This document shows positions 12,372 to 39,451 of a DNA stretch of 39,451 bases, piece by piece (the first letter of the stretch is position 1; every line of letters starts with the position of its first letter). The translations under genes and the position numbers were made by a program. A model generated the notes under the pieces. The model was not told the DNA's origin. It searched no databases and saw nothing but the letters and a program-made list of their open reading frames with translations. This DNA is from a phage, in sequence record PZ445455.1; one strand, 5' to 3'.

Positions 12372-12827
12372 GTGGCTGGCGCATACGCTGCGCGTGGTAT
12401 CCGAAAGGTCGGGGCATTCCGTTCCGGCCTAGAAGATAAGGTCTCTAAGCAGCTAGAGAGTAAAGGTATACAGTTTGATTACGAGCAGTGGAAGATTCCC
12501 TACGTAGTCCCTGCGAGTAATCATACCTATTGCCCAGATTTTCTACTGCCCAATGGTATCTTCATCGAGACCAAAGGGCTATGGGAAAGTGATGACCGCA
12601 AGAAGCATCTCCTGATTCGCGAGCAGATGCCTGAGCTGGATATACGACTTGTGTTCTCAAGCTCCCGCACAAAACTCTACAAAGGGTCTCCAACGTCCTA
12701 TGCAGAATTTTGTGAAAAGCACGGCATCAAGTTTGCTGATAAGCTGATTCCAGTTGAGTGGCTCAAAGAGCCTAAACGGGAGGTGCCATTCGATAAGCTC
12801 AAACAGTCAAAAGGAGCTAAGAAGTGA
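12372..12827 (+). CDS. 3: Endonuclease I (Holliday junction resolvase, gp3)
   Basis: 151 aa, GTG start immediately after 2.5 stop; near-identical to T7 gp3. Confidence 0.92.
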   Translation: MAGAYAARGIRKVGAFRSGLEDKVSKQLESKGIQFDYEQWKIPYVVPASNHTYCPDFLLPNGIFIETKGLWESDDRKKHLLIREQMPELDIRLVFSSSRTKLYKGSPTSYAEFCEKHGIKFADKLIPVEWLKEPKREVPFDKLKQSKGAKK

Positions 12828-13282
12828 TTCATCCAAAACTCTTGATAGAGCCGACCGATTCCTGTATTGAATGGACAGGCGCGTTCCACAAGAACGGGTA
12901 CGGAGTAATCTCTTTGAATCGCAAAGTGGCTGCCGAGCTAGGAATACCTAGGGTGCAATTTGTACACAGGGCAAGCTACATGCAGCATAAAGGAACTATA
13001 GGTGATGGACTTGTTGTTCGTCACTTGTGTCACAACAGAAAGTGTTTCAACCCAGCTCACTTGGAAGTCGGCACTCAGTACGATAACTTCGAAGATAGTG
13101 TTAAGGTTGGGCGCAACAAACGTAAACTGCTTGATGAGGACGTTAAATCAATTAGAGAGTCCACAATGAGTAACCGCAAGTTAGCCAAGCTATACGGTGT
13201 TAGCTCTACAACGATCTTCCACATCAAGCACAACAACAAGTGGAGGAATTTAAATGGCACGAGTACAATTCAAACAGCGTGA
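12824..13282 (+). CDS. HNH endonuclease with C-terminal helix-turn-helix (putative homing endonuclease)
   Basis: 152 aa; GTG start overlapping gene 3 stop, aaggag RBS; HNH motif VRHLCHNRKCFNPAHLEVGTQYDN; C-terminal NRKLAKLYGVSSTTIFHIKHN HTH-like; overlaps gene 3.5 start by 29 nt. Confidence 0.8.
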   Translation: MIHPKLLIEPTDSCIEWTGAFHKNGYGVISLNRKVAAELGIPRVQFVHRASYMQHKGTIGDGLVVRHLCHNRKCFNPAHLEVGTQYDNFEDSVKVGRNKRKLLDEDVKSIRESTMSNRKLAKLYGVSSTTIFHIKHNNKWRNLNGTSTIQTA

Positions 13283-13709
13283 AAGCACCGATGCAATCTT
13301 CGTTCATTGCTCAGCAACAAAACCTAATATGAATTGGGGTGTACGTGAGATTCGCCAGTCGCATAAAGAGCGTGGATTCCTAGATGTGGGATACCACTTT
13401 ATCATCAAGCGTGATGGTACTGTAGAGACCGGTCGAGACGAGATGGCTGTAGGCTCTCACGCTAAGGGCTACAATCACAACTCTATTGGTGTCTGCCTTG
13501 TAGGTGGCATCGACGATAAAGGTAAGTTTGACGCTAACTTTACGCCAGCCCAAATGCAATCCCTCCGCTCGCTGCTTGTCACACTTCTGGCTAAGTACGA
13601 AGGCGCTGTGCTTCGCGCCCATCACGATGTGGCACCTAAGGCTTGCCCTTCGTTCGACCTTAAGCGTTGGTGGGAAACTAACGAACTGGTCACTTCTGAC
13701 CGTGGATAA
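13254..13709 (+). CDS. 3.5: Lysozyme / N-acetylmuramoyl-L-alanine amidase and RNAP inhibitor (gp3.5)
   Basis: 151 aa; near-identical to T7 lysozyme. Confidence 0.95.
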   Translation: MARVQFKQRESTDAIFVHCSATKPNMNWGVREIRQSHKERGFLDVGYHFIIKRDGTVETGRDEMAVGSHAKGYNHNSIGVCLVGGIDDKGKFDANFTPAQMQSLRSLLVTLLAKYEGAVLRAHHDVAPKACPSFDLKRWWETNELVTSDRG

Positions 13710-32066: not shown

Positions 32067-35000
32067 ATGGATAAGTACGATAAGAACGTACCAAGTGATT
32101 ATGATGGTCTGTTCCAAAAGGCGGCTGATGCCAACGGGGTCTCTTATGACCTTTTACGTAAAGTCGCTTGGACAGAATCACGATTTGTGCCTACAGCAAA
32201 ATCTAAGACTGGACCATTAGGCATGATGCAATTTACCAAGGCAACAGCTAAGGCCCTAGGTCTGAGAGTTACCGATGGTCCAGACGACGACCGACTGAAC
32301 CCTGAGTTAGCCATCAATGCTGCCGCTAAGCACCTTGCAGGTCTGGTGGGTAAATTCGATGGTGACGAACTCAAAGCTGCCCTTGCGTACAACCAAGGCG
32401 AGGGACGCTTGGGTAATCCACAACTTGAGGCGTACTCTAGGGGAGACTTCGCATCCATCTCTGAGGAGGGGCGTAACTACATGCGTAACCTTCTGGATGT
32501 TGCCAAGTCGCCTATGGCTGGACAGTTGGAAACTTTTGGTGGCATAACCCCAAAGGGTAAAGGTATTCCGGCTGAGGTAGGATTGGCTGGAATTGGTCAC
32601 AAGCAGAAAGTAACACAGGAACTTCCTGAGTCCACAAGTTTTGACGTCAAGGGTATCGAACAGGAGGCTCCGGCGAAACCATTCGCCAAGGACTTTTGGG
32701 AGACCCACGGAGAAACACTTGACGAGTACAACAGTCGTTCAACCTTCTTCGGATTCAAAGACGCTGCCGAAGCTGAACTCTCCAACTCAGTCGCTGGAAT
32801 GGCTTTCCGTGCTGGTCGTCTCGATAATGGTTTTGATGTGTTTAAAGACACCATTACGCCGACTCGCTGGAACTCTCACATCTGGACTCCAGAAGAGTTA
32901 GAGAAGATTCGAACCGAGGTTAAGAACCCTGCGTATATCAACGTGGTAACTGGTGGTTCCCCTGAGAATCTTGACGACCTCATTAAGCTGGCTAACGATA
33001 ACTTTGAGAATGACTCACGCGCTGCCGAAGCTGGACTTGGTGCCAAACTGAGTGCTGGCGTTATTGGTGCTGGTGTGGACCCACTCAGCTATGTTCCTAT
33101 GGTCGGTGTAACTGGTAAGGGCTTTAAGTTAATCAATAAGGCTCTTGTAGTTGGTGCCGAAAGTGCTGCTCTGAACGTTGCATCCGAAGGTCTCCGCACC
33201 TCCGTAGCTGGTGGTGACGCAGACTATGCTGGTGCGGCCTTAGGTGGCTTTTTGTTTGGCGCTGGTATGTCTGCAATCAGTGACGCTGTAGCTGCTGGTC
33301 TGAAACGTAGCAAACCAGAAGCTGAGTTCGATAATGAGTTCATTGGCCCTATGATGCGATTGGAAGCCCGTGAGACAGCGCGTAACGCCAACTCTGCGGA
33401 CCTCTCTCGTATGAACACTGAGAACATGAAGTTTGAAGGTGAACATAATGGTGTCCCTTATGAGGACTTACCAACAGAGAGAGGTGCCGTGGTGTTACAT
33501 GATGGCTCCGTTCTAAGTGCAAGCAACCCAATCAACCCTAAGACTCTCCAAGAGTTCTCCGAGGTTGACCCTGAGAAGGCCGCACGAGGAATAAAACTTG
33601 CTGGGTTCACCGAGATTGGCTTGAAGACCTTGGGGTCTGACGATGCTGACATCCGTAGAGTGGCTATCGACCTCGTTCGCTCTCCTACTGGTATGCAGTC
33701 TGGTGCCTCAGGTAAGTTCGGTGCAACAGCTTCTGACATCCATGAGAGACTTCGTGGTACCGACCAGCGTACTTACAATGACCTGTACAAAGCAATGTCT
33801 GACGCTATGAAAGACCCTGAGTTCTCTACTGGCGGCGCTAAGATGTCCCGTGAAGAAACTCGCTACACTATCTACCGTAGAGCGGCACTAGCTATTGAGC
33901 GTCCAGAACTACAGAAGGTACTCACTCCGTCTGAGAGAATCGTTATGGACATCATTAAGCGTCACTTTGACACCAAGCGTGAACTCATGGAGAACCCAGC
34001 AATCTTCGGTAATACGAAGGCTGTTAGTATCTTCCCTGAGAGTCGTCACAAGGGAACATACGTTCCTCATGTTTATGACCGCCATGCTAAGGCGTTGATG
34101 ATTCAACGGTATGGTGCCGAAGGTTTACAGGAGGCCATCAAGAAGTCATGGCTAGCAAGCTATGTGTCAAGACCTGAAGTCAAGGCACGAGTGGACGAGA
34201 TGCTGGCAGGGCAGTTACGGGCATCTCAACCAACAGGTAAGACTGCGGGTACTACACCTAATAAGCACTCTTCTGTCGACACAGCCCGTTACCAGATGAA
34301 ACTGGACGATGCAGCTACACAGGCAAGTGATAAGGTATCGGAACTAAAAGACGTCCTGACCAACGCTGAGAAGCGAGTTGCGGACCGTGAAAGGAAACTC
34401 CAGAACTCCAAGGACAGACTAGCTTCGCATGAGGCTAAGCTGAAGGAGTTGGAAGAAAAACTAGCTGCTAAACCTAATAGCAAAACCCTTCCTGTTAAGA
34501 TTGAGAGCCGGAAGCAGATGATTGAGACCCAGAAGTCTCACGTCCGTATTAACACAGAGCGTCTCGACTACATGAAAGGACAGGCTGCTAGGGTCCAAGA
34601 CAGAATCACCAAAGCCGCCGCCGAAGCTGAAGCAGCCGCCTCCGCTGCCAAAGGGCAGAAGACTACTGTTGGCGGTGAGGACACTACTGCTGGTGAGGCT
34701 ATATTAGGTAACGCACCTCAATCAGTACAAGAGGTGACTATGGACATGGTCGAGAAGTACGCTATGGACAAGGCATATGGTATCTCCCACTCTGACCAGT
34801 TCTCCAACAGCTCCGTAATTGAAGAGAACATTGAGGGCCTAGTAGGTATTGAGAACAACTCGTTCCTTGAAGCCCGTAACTTGTTTGATTCTGACATATC
34901 TATCACAATGCCGGACGGACAACAGTTTGCGGTGAACGACCTAAGGGACTTCGATATGTTCCGCATCATGCCAGCGTATGACCGCCGTATCAACGGCGAC

Positions 35001-36527
35001 ATCGCCATCATGGGGTCTACCGGTAAAACCACTAAGGAACTTAAGGATGAGATTTTGGCTCTCAAAGCGAAAGCTGAGGGAGACGGTAAGAAGACAGGCG
35101 AGGTCCATGCTCTCATGGATACCATTAAGATTCTTACTGGTCGTGCTCGACGCAATCAGGACACTGTGTGGGAAACCTCACTGCGTTCCATCAATGACCT
35201 AGGGTTCTTCGCTAAGAACGCCTATATGGGTGCTCAGAACCTTACGGAGATTGCTGGGATGATTGCCACGGGTAACGTGCGTGCTCTTGGTCACGGTATC
35301 CCAATTCTACGCGATACCCTCTACAAGTCTAAACCAGTTTCCGCTAAGGAACTCAAGGAACTCCATGCGTCTCTATTCGGGAAGGAGGTGGACCAGTTGA
35401 TTCGCCCTAAACGTGCTGACATTGTGCAGCGCCTAAGGGAAGCTACTGATACCGGACCTGCTGTGGCGAACATCGTAGGGACCTTGAAGTATTCCACACA
35501 GGAACTGGCTGCTCGCTCTCCGTGGACTAAGATGCTGAACGGAACCACTAACTACCTTCTTGATGCTGCGCGTCAAGGTATGCTTGGGGACGTTATCAGT
35601 GCCACCTTAACAGGTAAGACTACCCGTTGGGAGAAAGAGGGATTCCTTCGGGGTGCCTCTGTGACCCCTGAGCAGATGGCTGGCATCAAGTCTCTCATCA
35701 AGGAACACATGGTACGCGGTGAGGACGGTAAGTTTACCGTTAAGGACAAGCAAGCGTTCTCTATGGACCCTCGCGCTATGGACTTATGGCGACTTGCTGA
35801 CAAGGTAGCTGATGAGGCAATGCTGCGTCCGCATAAGGTGTCCTTACAGGATTCCCATGCGTTCGGGGCATTAGGGAAGATGGTCATGCAGTTTAAGTCC
35901 TTCACTATCAAATCCCTTAACTCTAAGTTCCTGCGAACCTTCTACGACGGGTACAAGAACAACCGAGCGATTGACGCTGCGCTGACTGGCATTATCTCTA
36001 TGGGTCTCGCTGGTGGTTACTACGCTATGGCTGCACACGTCAAAGCGTATGGAATGCCTAAGGAGAAACGTAAAGAATACTTGGAGCGTGCATTGGACCC
36101 AACCATGATTGCCCATGCTTCGTTGTCTCGTAGTTCTCAATTGGGCGCTCCTTTGGCTATGGCTGACCTAGTTGGCGGTGTCTTAGGGTTCGAGTCCTCC
36201 AAGATGGCTCGCTCTACGATTCTACCTAAGGACACCATGAAGGAACGTGACCCAAACAAACCGTACACCTCAAGAGAGGTAATGGGAGCTATGGGTTCGA
36301 ACCTTCTGGAGCAGATGCCTTCCGCTGGCTTTGTGGCTAACGTAGGGGCTACCTTAATGAATGCTGCTGGTGTGGTTAATTCACCTAACAAGGCAACCGA
36401 GCAGGACTTCATGACTGGCTTGATGAACTCTACCAAAGAGTTGGTCCCTAACGACCCTCTTACTCAACAGCTTGTTATGAAAATTTATGAGGCCAATGGT
36501 GTTAACTTGAGGGAGCGTCGGAAATAA
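32067..36527 (+). CDS. 16: Internal core / ejection protein gp16 with N-terminal lytic transglycosylase domain; contains about 175-aa insertion
   Basis: 1486 aa versus 1318 in T7; N-terminal transglycosylase region (TESRF...GPLGMMQFTKAT) and rest collinear with T7 gp16 except segment 34206-34730. Confidence 0.95.
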   Translation: MDKYDKNVPSDYDGLFQKAADANGVSYDLLRKVAWTESRFVPTAKSKTGPLGMMQFTKATAKALGLRVTDGPDDDRLNPELAINAAAKHLAGLVGKFDGDELKAALAYNQGEGRLGNPQLEAYSRGDFASISEEGRNYMRNLLDVAKSPMAGQLETFGGITPKGKGIPAEVGLAGIGHKQKVTQELPESTSFDVKGIEQEAPAKPFAKDFWETHGETLDEYNSRSTFFGFKDAAEAELSNSVAGMAFRAGRLDNGFDVFKDTITPTRWNSHIWTPEELEKIRTEVKNPAYINVVTGGSPENLDDLIKLANDNFENDSRAAEAGLGAKLSAGVIGAGVDPLSYVPMVGVTGKGFKLINKALVVGAESAALNVASEGLRTSVAGGDADYAGAALGGFLFGAGMSAISDAVAAGLKRSKPEAEFDNEFIGPMMRLEARETARNANSADLSRMNTENMKFEGEHNGVPYEDLPTERGAVVLHDGSVLSASNPINPKTLQEFSEVDPEKAARGIKLAGFTEIGLKTLGSDDADIRRVAIDLVRSPTGMQSGASGKFGATASDIHERLRGTDQRTYNDLYKAMSDAMKDPEFSTGGAKMSREETRYTIYRRAALAIERPELQKVLTPSERIVMDIIKRHFDTKRELMENPAIFGNTKAVSIFPESRHKGTYVPHVYDRHAKALMIQRYGAEGLQEAIKKSWLASYVSRPEVKARVDEMLAGQLRASQPTGKTAGTTPNKHSSVDTARYQMKLDDAATQASDKVSELKDVLTNAEKRVADRERKLQNSKDRLASHEAKLKELEEKLAAKPNSKTLPVKIESRKQMIETQKSHVRINTERLDYMKGQAARVQDRITKAAAEAEAAASAAKGQKTTVGGEDTTAGEAILGNAPQSVQEVTMDMVEKYAMDKAYGISHSDQFSNSSVIEENIEGLVGIENNSFLEARNLFDSDISITMPDGQQFAVNDLRDFDMFRIMPAYDRRINGDIAIMGSTGKTTKELKDEILALKAKAEGDGKKTGEVHALMDTIKILTGRARRNQDTVWETSLRSINDLGFFAKNAYMGAQNLTEIAGMIATGNVRALGHGIPILRDTLYKSKPVSAKELKELHASLFGKEVDQLIRPKRADIVQRLREATDTGPAVANIVGTLKYSTQELAARSPWTKMLNGTTNYLLDAARQGMLGDVISATLTGKTTRWEKEGFLRGASVTPEQMAGIKSLIKEHMVRGEDGKFTVKDKQAFSMDPRAMDLWRLADKVADEAMLRPHKVSLQDSHAFGALGKMVMQFKSFTIKSLNSKFLRTFYDGYKNNRAIDAALTGIISMGLAGGYYAMAAHVKAYGMPKEKRKEYLERALDPTMIAHASLSRSSQLGAPLAMADLVGGVLGFESSKMARSTILPKDTMKERDPNKPYTSREVMGAMGSNLLEQMPSAGFVANVGATLMNAAGVVNSPNKATEQDFMTGLMNSTKELVPNDPLTQQLVMKIYEANGVNLRERRK

Positions 36528-36547
36528 TACGACTCACTATAGGGAGA
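36525..36547 (+). promoter_or_regulatory. Phage promoter phi17
   Basis: taatacgactcactatagggaga; overlaps gene 16 stop. Confidence 0.9.
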
Positions 36548-36599: not shown

Positions 36600-38399
36600 A
36601 TGGCTAACGTAATTAAAACCGTTTTGACTTACCAGTTAGATGGCTCCAATCGTGATTTTAATATCCCGTTTGAGTATCTAGCCCGTAAGTTCGTAGTGGT
36701 AACTCTTATTGGTGTAGACCGCAAGGTCCTTACGATTAATACAGACTACCGTTTTGCTACGCGTACTACCATCTCACTGACCAAGGCTTGGGGTCCGGCA
36801 GATGGCTACACTACCATCGAGTTACGTCGAGTAACCTCCACGACCGACCGCTTGGTTGACTTTACGGACGGCTCAATCCTCCGTGCGTATGACCTTAACG
36901 TTGCTCAGATTCAAACGATGCACGTAGCAGAAGAGGCCCGTGACCTAACTGCCGATACTATCGGTGTCAATAATGATGGTCACTTGGATGCGCGCGGTCG
37001 TCGAATTGTCAACCTAGCGAACGCCGTGGATGACCGTGATGCTGTTCCGTTTGGTCAACTTAAGACCATGAACCAGAACTCGTGGCAAGCACGTAATGAG
37101 GCCCTTCAGTTCCGTAATGAGGCTGAGACTTTCAGAAATCAAGCGGAGGGCTTTAAAACTGAGTCAGGTGCTAATGCTACTAATACGAAGCAGTGGCGTG
37201 ATGATGCTAAGGGGTTCCGAGATGAAGCCGAGCAGTTCAAGAATACGGCTGGTCAATATGCTACATCTGCTGGGAACTCTGCTACTGCTGCGCATCAATC
37301 TGAGGTAAACGCTGAGAACTCTGCCACAGCATCCGCTAACTCTGCCCATTCGGCAGAACAGCAAGCAGACCGCGCTAAGAGCGAGGCTGATAAGCTGGCG
37401 AATAATAATGCGTTCGCGGGGACGCTACACTCTATAACCCCAGATAACCCTGCTGTAATGGGCTCAGGTACTGTTACCTTCAAGTCGTCCTATGCGGTGA
37501 ATGCTCCAATACTTAGGGCGACAAAAGGTGGCATGTCTCTGGGGAGCGATAGAGTTGATGGAGATGGTACCTCCACGTTCATCAACTTCTACAAAGACTC
37601 TAGAAACACTGTAGGTAGTATTCAAGTAGGAGATGACGGCACATTCACCATAAATTCCAACGGCTGGACGAAACTCGCTGGCAGCGTCACACAGGTGAAC
37701 CAGCTGCGTTCTGGATACTCAGAGGTTACAGTAAACAACAACAATGTAGCCGTCCACGCCAGAGCAACAAATCTCAGTTGGGATGATGGTCAGACAAACG
37801 CAGTATATAACAGATACACGATTGCAGGACGAGGGTCTAGCGTCGAAGGGGTAGATGGAGCGATAATGGATTTTGGCATACGAGAGATAGTAGGTAACAG
37901 GTATGAGGCATATATGTGGGTAGCAGGCTTTGGTAGATCAGCTGTGTGGACATTTGGTCATACTGGCACGTTCACCAGCCCAGCCGATATAGTAGCCAAC
38001 GGGTCGTTAGTCGCTGGTAACAGTCTACGTATTGGGACATGTACCCACGCTTCCGATGGCAACATTTTTGGCTCTATCTGGGGTAACGATTGGTTAAGCA
38101 ATTACCTAAACAGGTCGTTTAAAAGGAAAACCAAAGAATGGACTTCGGTGTGGAATGGGAGAATAGGTGCTGGAGGTGTAGCATGGCTGACCCAAGATGT
38201 ACGTTTTAGAACCATTTGGATACGCACAGAGGCCCGGCCTTCTACGTGGACGCCAATTCAACTGGGCCCTGATGGGATGTACATGGCGCGACCTGACCCT
38301 GGCTGGATTCGGTTCACACTGGCTAACAATGGTACGTCCATAACCAACAACCAAGATGATAACTCTGTTCCTATCGAGATTGCCGTAGAGAATGAGTAA
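36600..38399 (+). CDS. 17: Tail fiber protein gp17 with divergent distal (receptor-binding) domain
   Basis: 599 aa; first about 260 aa near-identical to T7 gp17; remainder divergent but retains scattered gp17 tip motifs and C-terminal ...VENE. Confidence 0.93.
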   Translation: MANVIKTVLTYQLDGSNRDFNIPFEYLARKFVVVTLIGVDRKVLTINTDYRFATRTTISLTKAWGPADGYTTIELRRVTSTTDRLVDFTDGSILRAYDLNVAQIQTMHVAEEARDLTADTIGVNNDGHLDARGRRIVNLANAVDDRDAVPFGQLKTMNQNSWQARNEALQFRNEAETFRNQAEGFKTESGANATNTKQWRDDAKGFRDEAEQFKNTAGQYATSAGNSATAAHQSEVNAENSATASANSAHSAEQQADRAKSEADKLANNNAFAGTLHSITPDNPAVMGSGTVTFKSSYAVNAPILRATKGGMSLGSDRVDGDGTSTFINFYKDSRNTVGSIQVGDDGTFTINSNGWTKLAGSVTQVNQLRSGYSEVTVNNNNVAVHARATNLSWDDGQTNAVYNRYTIAGRGSSVEGVDGAIMDFGIREIVGNRYEAYMWVAGFGRSAVWTFGHTGTFTSPADIVANGSLVAGNSLRIGTCTHASDGNIFGSIWGNDWLSNYLNRSFKRKTKEWTSVWNGRIGAGGVAWLTQDVRFRTIWIRTEARPSTWTPIQLGPDGMYMARPDPGWIRFTLANNGTSITNNQDDNSVPIEIAVENE

Positions 38400-38427
38400 T
38401 CATTCACGTAAACCTTAGGAGGACAGT

Positions 38428-38631
38428 ATGTTAAGCCTAGACTTTAACAACGAAGTCATAAAGGCGGCTCCGATTGCGGGTACTGCGGTTACTGATGTGG
38501 CTACCCGCTACTTCTTCGGATTGTCGTTAAACGAATGGTTCTATGTTGCTGCTATCGCCTACACAGTAGTTCAGATTGGTGCTAAGGTAGTCGATAAAGT
38601 GATTGATTGGAAGAAAGCCAATAAGGAGTAG
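38428..38631 (+). CDS. 17.5: Holin (gp17.5)
   Basis: 67 aa MLSLDFNNEVIKAAPIAGTAVTDVATRYFFGLSLNEWFYVAAIAYTVVQIGAKVVDKVIDWKKANKE; matches T7 holin. Confidence 0.9.
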   Translation: MLSLDFNNEVIKAAPIAGTAVTDVATRYFFGLSLNEWFYVAAIAYTVVQIGAKVVDKVIDWKKANKE

Positions 38632-38634
38632 CAC

Positions 38635-38904
38635 ATGGATAAAGATAAGAGTCTCATTACGTTCCTAGAGATGTTGGACACTGCGATGGCTCAGCGAATG
38701 CTGGCAGACCTCTCGAATGAAGAGAAGCGTAGTCCTCAACTCTACAACGCTATTAACAAACTGTTAGACCGCCACAAGTTCCAAATCGGTAAGCTGCAAC
38801 CTGACGTCCACATTCTAGGTGGCCTCGCTGGTGCTCTTGAGGAGTACAAAGAGAAAGTCGGTGACAGTGGACTTACGGACGACGACTTGTACACGTTACA
38901 GTGA
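38635..38904 (+). CDS. 18: Terminase small subunit (gp18)
   Basis: 89 aa; matches T7 gp18. Confidence 0.92.
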   Translation: MDKDKSLITFLEMLDTAMAQRMLADLSNEEKRSPQLYNAINKLLDRHKFQIGKLQPDVHILGGLAGALEEYKEKVGDSGLTDDDLYTLQ

Positions 38905-38905
38905 C

Positions 38906-38940
38906 ATACTCAAGGTCCTACATATTGGGGCCTTTATGGA
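38906..38940 (+). promoter_or_regulatory. RNase III hairpin R18.5
   Basis: atactcaaggtcctacatattggggcctttatgga. Confidence 0.6.
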
Positions 38941-38998
38941 TGTCATTGTCTACACGAGATGCTCCTACCGTGAAATCTGAAAGTTAACGGGAGGCATT

Positions 38999-39442
38999 AT
39001 GCTAGAATTTTTACGTAAGCTAATCCCTTGGGTTCTCGCTGGGATGCTATTCGGATTAGGATGGCATCTAGGGTCATACTCAATGGACGCTAAATGGAAA
39101 CAGGAGGTACACAATGAGTACGTTAAGAGAGTTGAGGCTGCGAAGAGCACTCAAAGAGCAATCGATGCGGTATCGGCTAAGTATCAAGAAGACCTTGCCG
39201 CGCTGGAAGGGAGCACTGATAGGATTATTTCTGATTTGCGTAGCGACAATAAGCGGTTGCGCGTCAGAATCAAAACTACCGGAACCTCCGATGGTCAGTG
39301 TGGATTCGAGCCTGATGGTCGAGCCGAACTTGACGACCGAGATGCTAAGCGTATTCTCGCAGTGACCCAGAAGGGTGACGCATGGATTCGTGCGTTACAG
39401 GATACTATTCGTGAACTGCAACGTAAGCAGGAAATCAAGTAA
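38999..39442 (+). CDS. 18.5: i-spanin (Rz-like, gp18.5)
   Basis: 147 aa with N-terminal TM segment and coiled-coil periplasmic domain; matches T7 gp18.5. Confidence 0.9.
   Translation: MLEFLRKLIPWVLAGMLFGLGWHLGSYSMDAKWKQEVHNEYVKRVEAAKSTQRAIDAVSAKYQEDLAALEGSTDRIISDLRSDNKRLRVRIKTTGTSDGQCGFEPDGRAELDDRDAKRILAVTQKGDAWIRALQDTIRELQRKQEIK
39114..39365 (+). CDS. 18.7: o-spanin (Rz1-like lipoprotein, gp18.7) embedded in the +1 frame of gene 18.5
   Basis: 83 aa with lipobox-like LICVATISGC; near-identical to T7 gp18.7. Confidence 0.85.
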   Translation: MSTLRELRLRRALKEQSMRYRLSIKKTLPRWKGALIGLFLICVATISGCASESKLPEPPMVSVDSSLMVEPNLTTEMLSVFSQ

Positions 39443-39451
39443 GGAGGCAAC

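Follow-up and report, generated by a model that had tools for sequence, protein, structure and literature searches.

Does the 83-amino-acid open reading frame (ORF) that lies inside the 18.5-like gene of this phage encode a genuine protein, and do the two overlapping genes together specify a spanin? The window, that is, the whole stretch of 39,451 nt analyzed here (record PZ445455.1), is a complete Teseptimavirus genome with about 92–93% DNA identity to T7 and the Basel T7-like phages. The initial annotation had described the locus as a conserved pair of embedded two-component spanin genes and had used the T7 names 18.5 and 18.7. The evidence assembled below supports that the locus is an embedded two-component spanin orthologous to T7 genes 18.5 and 18.7, with a probability of about 0.96. 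Identity to the T7 proteins is 99% for the i-spanin (gp18.5) and 98% for the o-spanin (gp18.7); both genes are also annotated at the equivalent positions in the T7 record, and the ‘T7’ family of embedded two-component spanins in SpaninDB includes the pairs of phages 13a and phiA1122. These identities, along with the T7 gene order and matches to PF03245, PF17531, and PHROGs 1327 and 4306, justify the T7 names. The feature is real, was correctly interpreted, and was known beforehand rather than discovered here. The definition of an embedded two-component spanin used here is that of Summer 2007 (as cited in PMC8365609, PMC6139136) and Kongari 2018. The two coding sequences and their ribosome-binding sites are located as follows.

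38999..39442, + strand: i-spanin gene (T7 gene 18.5 orthologue), ATG start, 147 aa

38989..38994, + strand: Shine–Dalgarno sequence GGGAGG, 4 nt upstream of the 18.5 ATG, identical in T7 and JB01

39114..39365, + strand: o-spanin gene (T7 gene 18.7 orthologue), ATG start, 83-aa precursor

39102..39108, + strand: Shine–Dalgarno sequence AGGAGGT, 5 nt upstream of the 18.7 ATG, within the 18.5 coding sequence

The start of the inner gene is 115 nt downstream of that of 18.5, an offset that puts it in the +1 frame, and 77 nt of 18.5 remain beyond its end. The inner gene is fully nested (39114..39365 within 38999..39442), and the initial annotation had likewise placed it wholly inside 18.5 in the +1 frame. 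An o-spanin gene lying wholly within the i-spanin gene in another reading frame is the arrangement of an embedded spanin. The i-spanin C-terminus reads ...RKQEIK (39428–39442), and the 18.5 stop codon, TAA, belongs to the Shine–Dalgarno sequence of gene 19 (TAAGGAGG) in the last bases of the window.

Two elements of the outer gene bear on its identity as an i-spanin.

39020..39076, + strand: i-spanin codons 8–26 (LIPWVLAGMLFGLGWHLGS), predicted inner-membrane anchor, from hydropathy

39299..39301, + strand: codon of i-spanin Cys101, in the linker at about residues 94–112

A basic N-terminus (MLEFLRK) precedes the Gly/Trp-rich hydrophobic stretch at residues 8–26. By definition, an i-spanin is a type II inner-membrane protein (N-in, C-out) with a single transmembrane domain at its N-terminus. 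The top 19-residue Kyte–Doolittle mean here, 1.35, is moderate and below the usual threshold of 1.6; the structural model is helical in this region, and in SpaninDB the membrane domains of 13a and phiA1122 are assigned to the equivalent segment. The single-sequence AlphaFold model, which serves only as a guide to secondary structure given its modest confidence (mean pLDDT 66.7, pTM 0.25), contains a helix at residues 2–93, a low-confidence coil at 94–112, and a helix at 113–146. The periplasmic part is therefore predicted, at modest confidence, to be mainly α-helical, with two helices joined by a flexible linker. Codon 27 (39077–39079) encodes Tyr (TAC) here and Asp (GAC) in all 24 relatives examined; D27Y is located where the predicted membrane anchor meets the periplasm, and either a real variant or a sequencing error could explain it.

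Two-component spanins require at least one periplasmic cysteine (PMC6139136). Cys101 is the single cysteine of the i-spanin and, apart from the lipid-modified Cys49 of the o-spanin, the sole periplasmic cysteine of the pair; a cysteine in the linker is kept in 24 of 24 relatives. Cys101 is thus a candidate for a homotypic intermolecular disulfide. At the family level, residues 34–118 of the i-spanin score 29.4 bits with PF03245 (Phage_lysis, the lambda Rz family; cut-off 25.4, E 1e-6), and the protein matches PHROG 1327 (‘Rz-like spanin’) with an E of 3e-64. At E values up to 1, no PDB chain matched the i-spanin sequence, and the search thus gave no structural anchor.

These matches also bear on an older view of such proteins, in which gp18.5 would be a murein endopeptidase that acts enzymatically on cell-wall or outer-membrane links, and not a membrane-fusion subunit. 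The database names of homologues include ‘endopeptidase Rz’ and ‘endopeptidase’, and the view is repeated in PMC3276506. However, only the Rz lysis family and the Rz-like spanin PHROGs match and no catalytic domain is found, the model is helix–linker–helix without a globular fold, no solved structure is related by sequence, and the current literature assigns spanin-mediated membrane fusion to Rz-type proteins (PMC6139136). An enzymatic role for gp18.5 is therefore highly unlikely, and the protein is treated below as the inner-membrane subunit of a spanin.

The inner gene encodes a protein with the anatomy of a lipoprotein precursor: a basic n-region (residues 1–33), a 12-residue h-region (34–45) with Kyte–Doolittle values up to 3.0, a lipobox (46–49), and a mature part of 35 residues.

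39249..39260, + strand: lipobox ISGC, with the Cys49 codon at 39258–39260

The sequence LICVATISGC, which had been picked out as lipobox-like, is present at residues 40–49. ISGC fits both the lipobox consensus [LVI][ASTVI][GAS]C and the PROSITE-type lipoprotein pattern, so that, by pattern, the protein carries a lipobox cysteine in a signal for signal peptidase II. The initial annotation had named the lack of such a cysteine on careful inspection as grounds for giving up the claim; Cys49 is found in ISG|C, and the claim stands. Cys42 was considered as an alternative lipidation site and rejected, as the residue at its −1 position is Ile. The mature protein (CASESKLPEPPMVSVDSSLMVEPNLTTEMLSVFSQ) is acidic and has no cysteine other than that of the lipobox, and no hydrophobic window occurs outside residues 31–51 of the 83-aa protein. 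Prolines account for 5 of the 83 residues of the ORF and for 4 of the 35 (11%) of the mature part, which includes a PEPP motif.

In lipoprotein sorting by the Lol system, Asp at position +2 after the lipid-modified cysteine causes retention in the inner membrane, and lipoproteins that lack it go to the outer membrane. The mature o-spanin begins Cys-Ala-Ser, with Ala at +2, Ser at +3, and no Asp retention signal, and is accordingly predicted to be sorted to the outer membrane. PF17531 (O_Spanin_T7) matches residues 25–83 over its full profile (1–59) and scores 136.6 bits (cut-off 25; E 2.7e-40), and PHROG 4306 (‘Rz-like spanin’) matches with an E of 7.5e-40. The DNA of the mature o-spanin also encodes i-spanin residues 88–122, which are largely the disordered linker.

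The simplest alternative to a second gene is that the 83-aa ORF is a chance open frame within a real 18.5, from which no protein is made. ORF length gives some room for this: when the codons of 18.5 are shuffled synonymously, a +1 ORF of at least 83 aa arises in 307 of 20,000 trials (1.5%), and length alone is weak to modest evidence for 18.7. In addition, 18.7 or an Rz1-like feature is annotated in only 3 of the 25 T7-like records listed. The comparative data point the other way. The relatives compared (n = 24) are T7, JB01, and 22 viral contigs that code for proteins related to the i-spanin, with identities as low as 53%. All 24 contain a +1 ORF of 83–85 aa from the conserved start, with a lipobox and GGAGG, and ISGC is invariant in 23 of them and replaced by TAAC in the most distant one. 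The GGAGG before Met1 of 18.7 is kept in all relatives, even where the 18.5 protein differs at that place (KQEV vs. KEVV/KEVN). The claim that the pair is conserved thus holds for the embedded ORF, the lipobox, and the Shine–Dalgarno sequence alike, down to 53% i-spanin identity.

Variation in the outer gene is the second line of evidence against a chance frame. Third codon positions of 18.5 coincide with second codon positions of 18.7, so that suppressed variation at these sites is the pattern expected of two protein-coding frames. Among the 17 gap-free relatives, from which the counts inside and outside the overlap were taken, 13 of 84 third positions of 18.5 are variable inside the overlap and 27 of 54 outside it (Fisher p 1.9e-5), and third-position variation is 3–4 times lower inside than outside. 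Over 18.7 residues 34–83, 6 of 50 third positions are variable, compared with 18 of 31 outside (p 1.6e-5), and over the h-region and lipobox of 18.7, none of 16 second and none of 16 third positions of 18.5 vary. The reduction in synonymous variation of 18.5 falls exactly over the overlap, and both frames are conserved and under purifying selection.

The +2 frame of 18.5 behaves differently from the +1 frame, as it holds no ORF longer than 21 aa here. A 29-aa +2 ORF found in some relatives is interrupted in this phage and has no signal, and was rejected as a chance frame. Conservation of the ORF, lipobox, and Shine–Dalgarno sequence, together with suppressed third-position variation, rules out chance as the source of the +1 ORF, and the Pfam and PHROG matches (E about 1e-40) also speak against it. 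On these comparisons, a fortuitous frame has next to no probability and appears effectively refuted, which also bears out the suggestion that overlapping ORFs in this genome can be real. The 83-aa frame is accordingly treated below as the o-spanin gene.

Where translation of 18.7 begins is a separate question, on which public resources differ: the T7 record starts the o-spanin at Met1 (83 aa), and SpaninDB starts the 13a orthologue at Met18 (66 aa). In the standard lipoprotein signature, the lipobox cysteine falls within positions 15–35. Counted from Met1, the cysteine is at position 49 and lies beyond this range. If translation instead began at Met18 (39165), the 66-aa precursor would have a conventional 31-residue signal peptide with the lipobox cysteine at position 32 and a normal, short basic n-region, and the 83-aa ORF would over-extend the real gene at its 5′ end; use of both starts belongs to the same alternative. 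In agreement with a Met18 start, the PF17531 match leaves out the first 24 residues of the 83-aa ORF, and SpaninDB gives the 66-aa form for 13a.

Several observations weigh against Met18. A strong AGGAGGT lies 5 nt upstream of Met1, whereas codon 18 is preceded only by a weak AAGAG, and the Shine–Dalgarno sequence quoted by SpaninDB is itself the one that precedes Met1. Every relative retains Met1 (GTG in one case) together with GGAGG; by contrast, three of the four relatives furthest removed have ATA, ACG, or TCA at codon 18. Third positions of 18.5 over 18.7 codons 1–17 also vary less than those outside the overlap (4 of 17 vs. 18 of 31, p 0.034), and the PHROG 4306 alignment covers residues 1–83. 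Initiation at Met18, alone or alongside Met1, is therefore unlikely; most likely, the o-spanin is translated from Met1 (39114) with an unusually long basic n-region of 33 residues.

These 33 N-terminal residues include 11 Lys/Arg and 2 Asp/Glu, and their length and charge are conserved in all relatives examined. It is doubtful that this extension of the signal peptide is a functional element in its own right and not a by-product of the overlap, as its basic composition could equally stem from the Glu/Lys-rich coiled-coil codons of 18.5 read in the +1 frame. If it were functional, the extension could delay or meter export of the lipoprotein or, in combination with Met18, permit two precursor forms.

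The position of the pair in the genome is that of T7. The neighboring lysis and packaging genes, the promoters, and a hairpin that bear on its expression are listed below.

36525..36547, + strand: phi17-equivalent T7 RNA polymerase promoter, 0 mismatches to the consensus, 0 chance matches expected

38428..38631, + strand: holin gene (T7 gene 17.5 orthologue), PF10746 E 2.2e-33, PHROG 920 holin

38635..38904: gene 18, small terminase

38900..38947, + strand: RNA hairpin in the 18/18.5 intergenic region, fold shared with T7

13254..13709, + strand: endolysin gene (T7 gene 3.5 type N-acetylmuramoyl-L-alanine amidase), PF01510 E 1.7e-17

1855–1877: phiOR-equivalent promoter, a match to the T7 promoter consensus

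The gene order 17, 17.5 (holin), 18, 18.5/18.7, 19 is that of T7. The holin gene lies 368 nt upstream of the spanin pair with gene 18 between them, which links the pair to another lysis gene; the endolysin gene is distant from the spanin genes, as it is in T7. In this lysis pathway the holin acts first and the endolysin second. All identified genes of the genome are on the + strand, and the minus-strand ORFs over the locus are 38965..39150 (61 aa) and 39295..39450 (51 aa). The record is rotated: its position 1 is the first base of the GTG start codon of gene 19 (large terminase, 1–1761). The genome ends and the terminal repeat must therefore be internal to the window and lie downstream of the phiOR equivalent at 1855.

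The genome contains 10 matches to the T7 promoter consensus, 6 of them perfect, and the phi17 equivalent is the closest late promoter upstream of the unit 17, 17.5, 18, 18.5/18.7, 19. In a scan of 38300–39451, no terminator-like sites above chance were found between this promoter and the spanin genes, and counts of sigma-70 promoters and intrinsic terminators did not exceed those of shuffled sequences; an internal promoter for 18.7 is therefore unsupported. The intergenic hairpin has a folding energy of −30.4 kcal/mol here and −28.5 kcal/mol in T7 (z about −2.2), and the same fold is retained despite several base changes in the stem, where the substitutions relative to T7 look compensatory. 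The hairpin occupies what we take, from the T7 map, to be the position of the RNase III site R18.5, and is likely a processing site that makes the 5′ end of the spanin mRNA. A scan of the entire window against Rfam at gathering thresholds gave 0 matches, and the hairpin belongs to no Rfam family.

Two other regions of the genome differ from T7. An ORF for a 152-aa HNH endonuclease (12824–13282, + strand; PF13392, E 1.8e-10) is located between gene 3 (endonuclease I) and gene 3.5 (amidase) and shares 29 nt with the start of the latter. No gene occupies this position in T7, and DNA of this ORF occurs in only 15 of 50,697 phage records, among them phiA1122 (‘protein 3.3’) at 94% and both ESh2 and PGX1 at 99%; the product is likely a mobile homing endonuclease. 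The tail fiber gene 17 (36600–38399, + strand) encodes 599 aa, compared with 553 aa in T7 (34624–36285 in the T7 record). Its C-terminal part of about 1.1 kb (especially 37300–38420) matches one phage record only, vB_EcoP_LNA7, at 95%. T7 and 13a match only the first approximately 100 nt, and similarity to T7 resumes at about 38438. In sequence comparison, gp17 looks like a protein with a swapped receptor-binding domain, with a mosaic joint just before the holin gene.

A mechanism for the pair can be outlined from the Rz/Rz1 model (PMC6139136, PMC5295617) and from homology to T7. Its o-spanin part is carried over by analogy of architecture, because no lambda Rz1 model matches the o-spanin, and its i-spanin part through weak homology to Rz. 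Both proteins would be made late in infection from the phi17 late transcript. The gp18.5 protein would insert into the inner membrane with its N-terminus inside and its C-terminus outside, while gp18.7 would be exported, lipidated on Cys49, and cut by signal peptidase II and, with Ala and not Asp at residue +2, would then pass to the outer membrane. The C-termini of the two proteins would bind across the periplasm, with gp18.5 dimerized via Cys101. Once the holin gp17.5 and the amidase gp3.5 destroy the murein meshwork, the complexes would be freed, and would collapse and fuse the inner and outer membranes, removing the last barrier to phage release. Under the definition of such spanins, loss of either subunit would give a lysis defect that depends on divalent cations. 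In T7, binding has been reported between a 10-residue stretch at the C-terminus of gp18.7 and the final 50 residues of gp18.5 (cited in PMC3276506). Viable T7 mutants with 18.5 and 18.7 deleted or disrupted have been described, and both genes are thus dispensable in the laboratory (PMC9825161).

The current understanding of spanins is unchanged by this locus. The spanin pair is useful as an internal positive control, in that a fully nested, frame-shifted gene is real in this genome. Simple comparative statistics, namely suppressed synonymous variation and a conserved internal ribosome-binding site, detect the nested gene and are applicable to less certain overlapping ORFs. Just three of the 25 records listed for the closest phages annotate the inner gene. 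In most T7-like genomes on deposit, the outer gene alone is annotated, often as ‘endopeptidase Rz’, and the o-spanin ORF is intact in them; one example in which it is left unannotated is MW074885 (JB01; L002, 1278–1529).

Among known spanins, one comparison is with the unimolecular type, as in gp11 of phage T1. Both kinds disrupt the outer membrane and need an outer-membrane lipoprotein signal. However, T1 gp11 is one protein that carries both a lipobox and a C-terminal membrane helix, whereas two proteins are encoded here. A unimolecular spanin was accordingly rejected for this locus, given that the only hydrophobic segment of the lipoprotein lies in its signal peptide.

The likeness to lambda Rz/Rz1 lies mainly in architecture. 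In both phages the gene for the membrane protein fully encloses that for the lipoprotein, which is read in the +1 frame. The i-spanin resembles Rz in its predicted N-terminal anchor, in two predicted helical segments joined by a linker, and in passing the PF03245 model, and the mature o-spanin resembles Rz1 in being short and containing proline (35 aa here, 40 aa in lambda). The mature o-spanin has 4 prolines in 35 residues, compared with 10 in 40 for lambda Rz1 (PMC6139136), so that the description of the lipoprotein as Pro-rich, offered in the initial annotation, holds only mildly. Lambda Rz1 has a periplasmic Cys29, whereas the mature o-spanin here has none, and the i-spanin has one cysteine where lambda Rz has two (PMC6139136). 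Unlike the contiguous lysis cassette of lambda, the pair here lies apart from the endolysin gene, between the two terminase genes. In a Pfam scan at E up to 0.01, the 83-aa protein matched PF17531 only and no Rz1 family. The view of the locus as a classic embedded Rz/Rz1 pair therefore stands for the architecture and for the i-spanin, which passes the Rz model, and does not extend to the o-spanin, which matches no Rz1 model. As judged from family models, the o-spanin appears to share the architecture and putative role of Rz1 without demonstrable Rz1 ancestry.

The closest known system is the 18.5/18.7 pair of T7, with its orthologues in T3, 13a, and phiA1122. The +1 nesting and the 115 nt offset are the same, as are the Shine–Dalgarno sequences, the ISGC lipobox, the linker cysteine, and the neighbors (holin 17.5, gene 18, and gene 19). 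The o-spanin differs from that of T7 by L21R and N79S, both of which occur in other relatives. N79S falls in the C-terminal segment reported to bind gp18.5; Ser is present at position 79 in JB01 and in the relatives L003, L007, L013, L014, and L020, and Asn is present in T7 and several others. The i-spanin differs from that of T7 by V91I and by D27Y, the latter unique with respect to the 24 relatives. The i-spanin is 147 aa long here and in T3, 13a, and JB01, and 143 aa long in T7, which has TAG at codon 144 where this phage, the T3-like phages, and most other relatives have CAG, leading to four extra residues (QEIK) here. In i-spanin length, T7 is thus the exception among its relatives.
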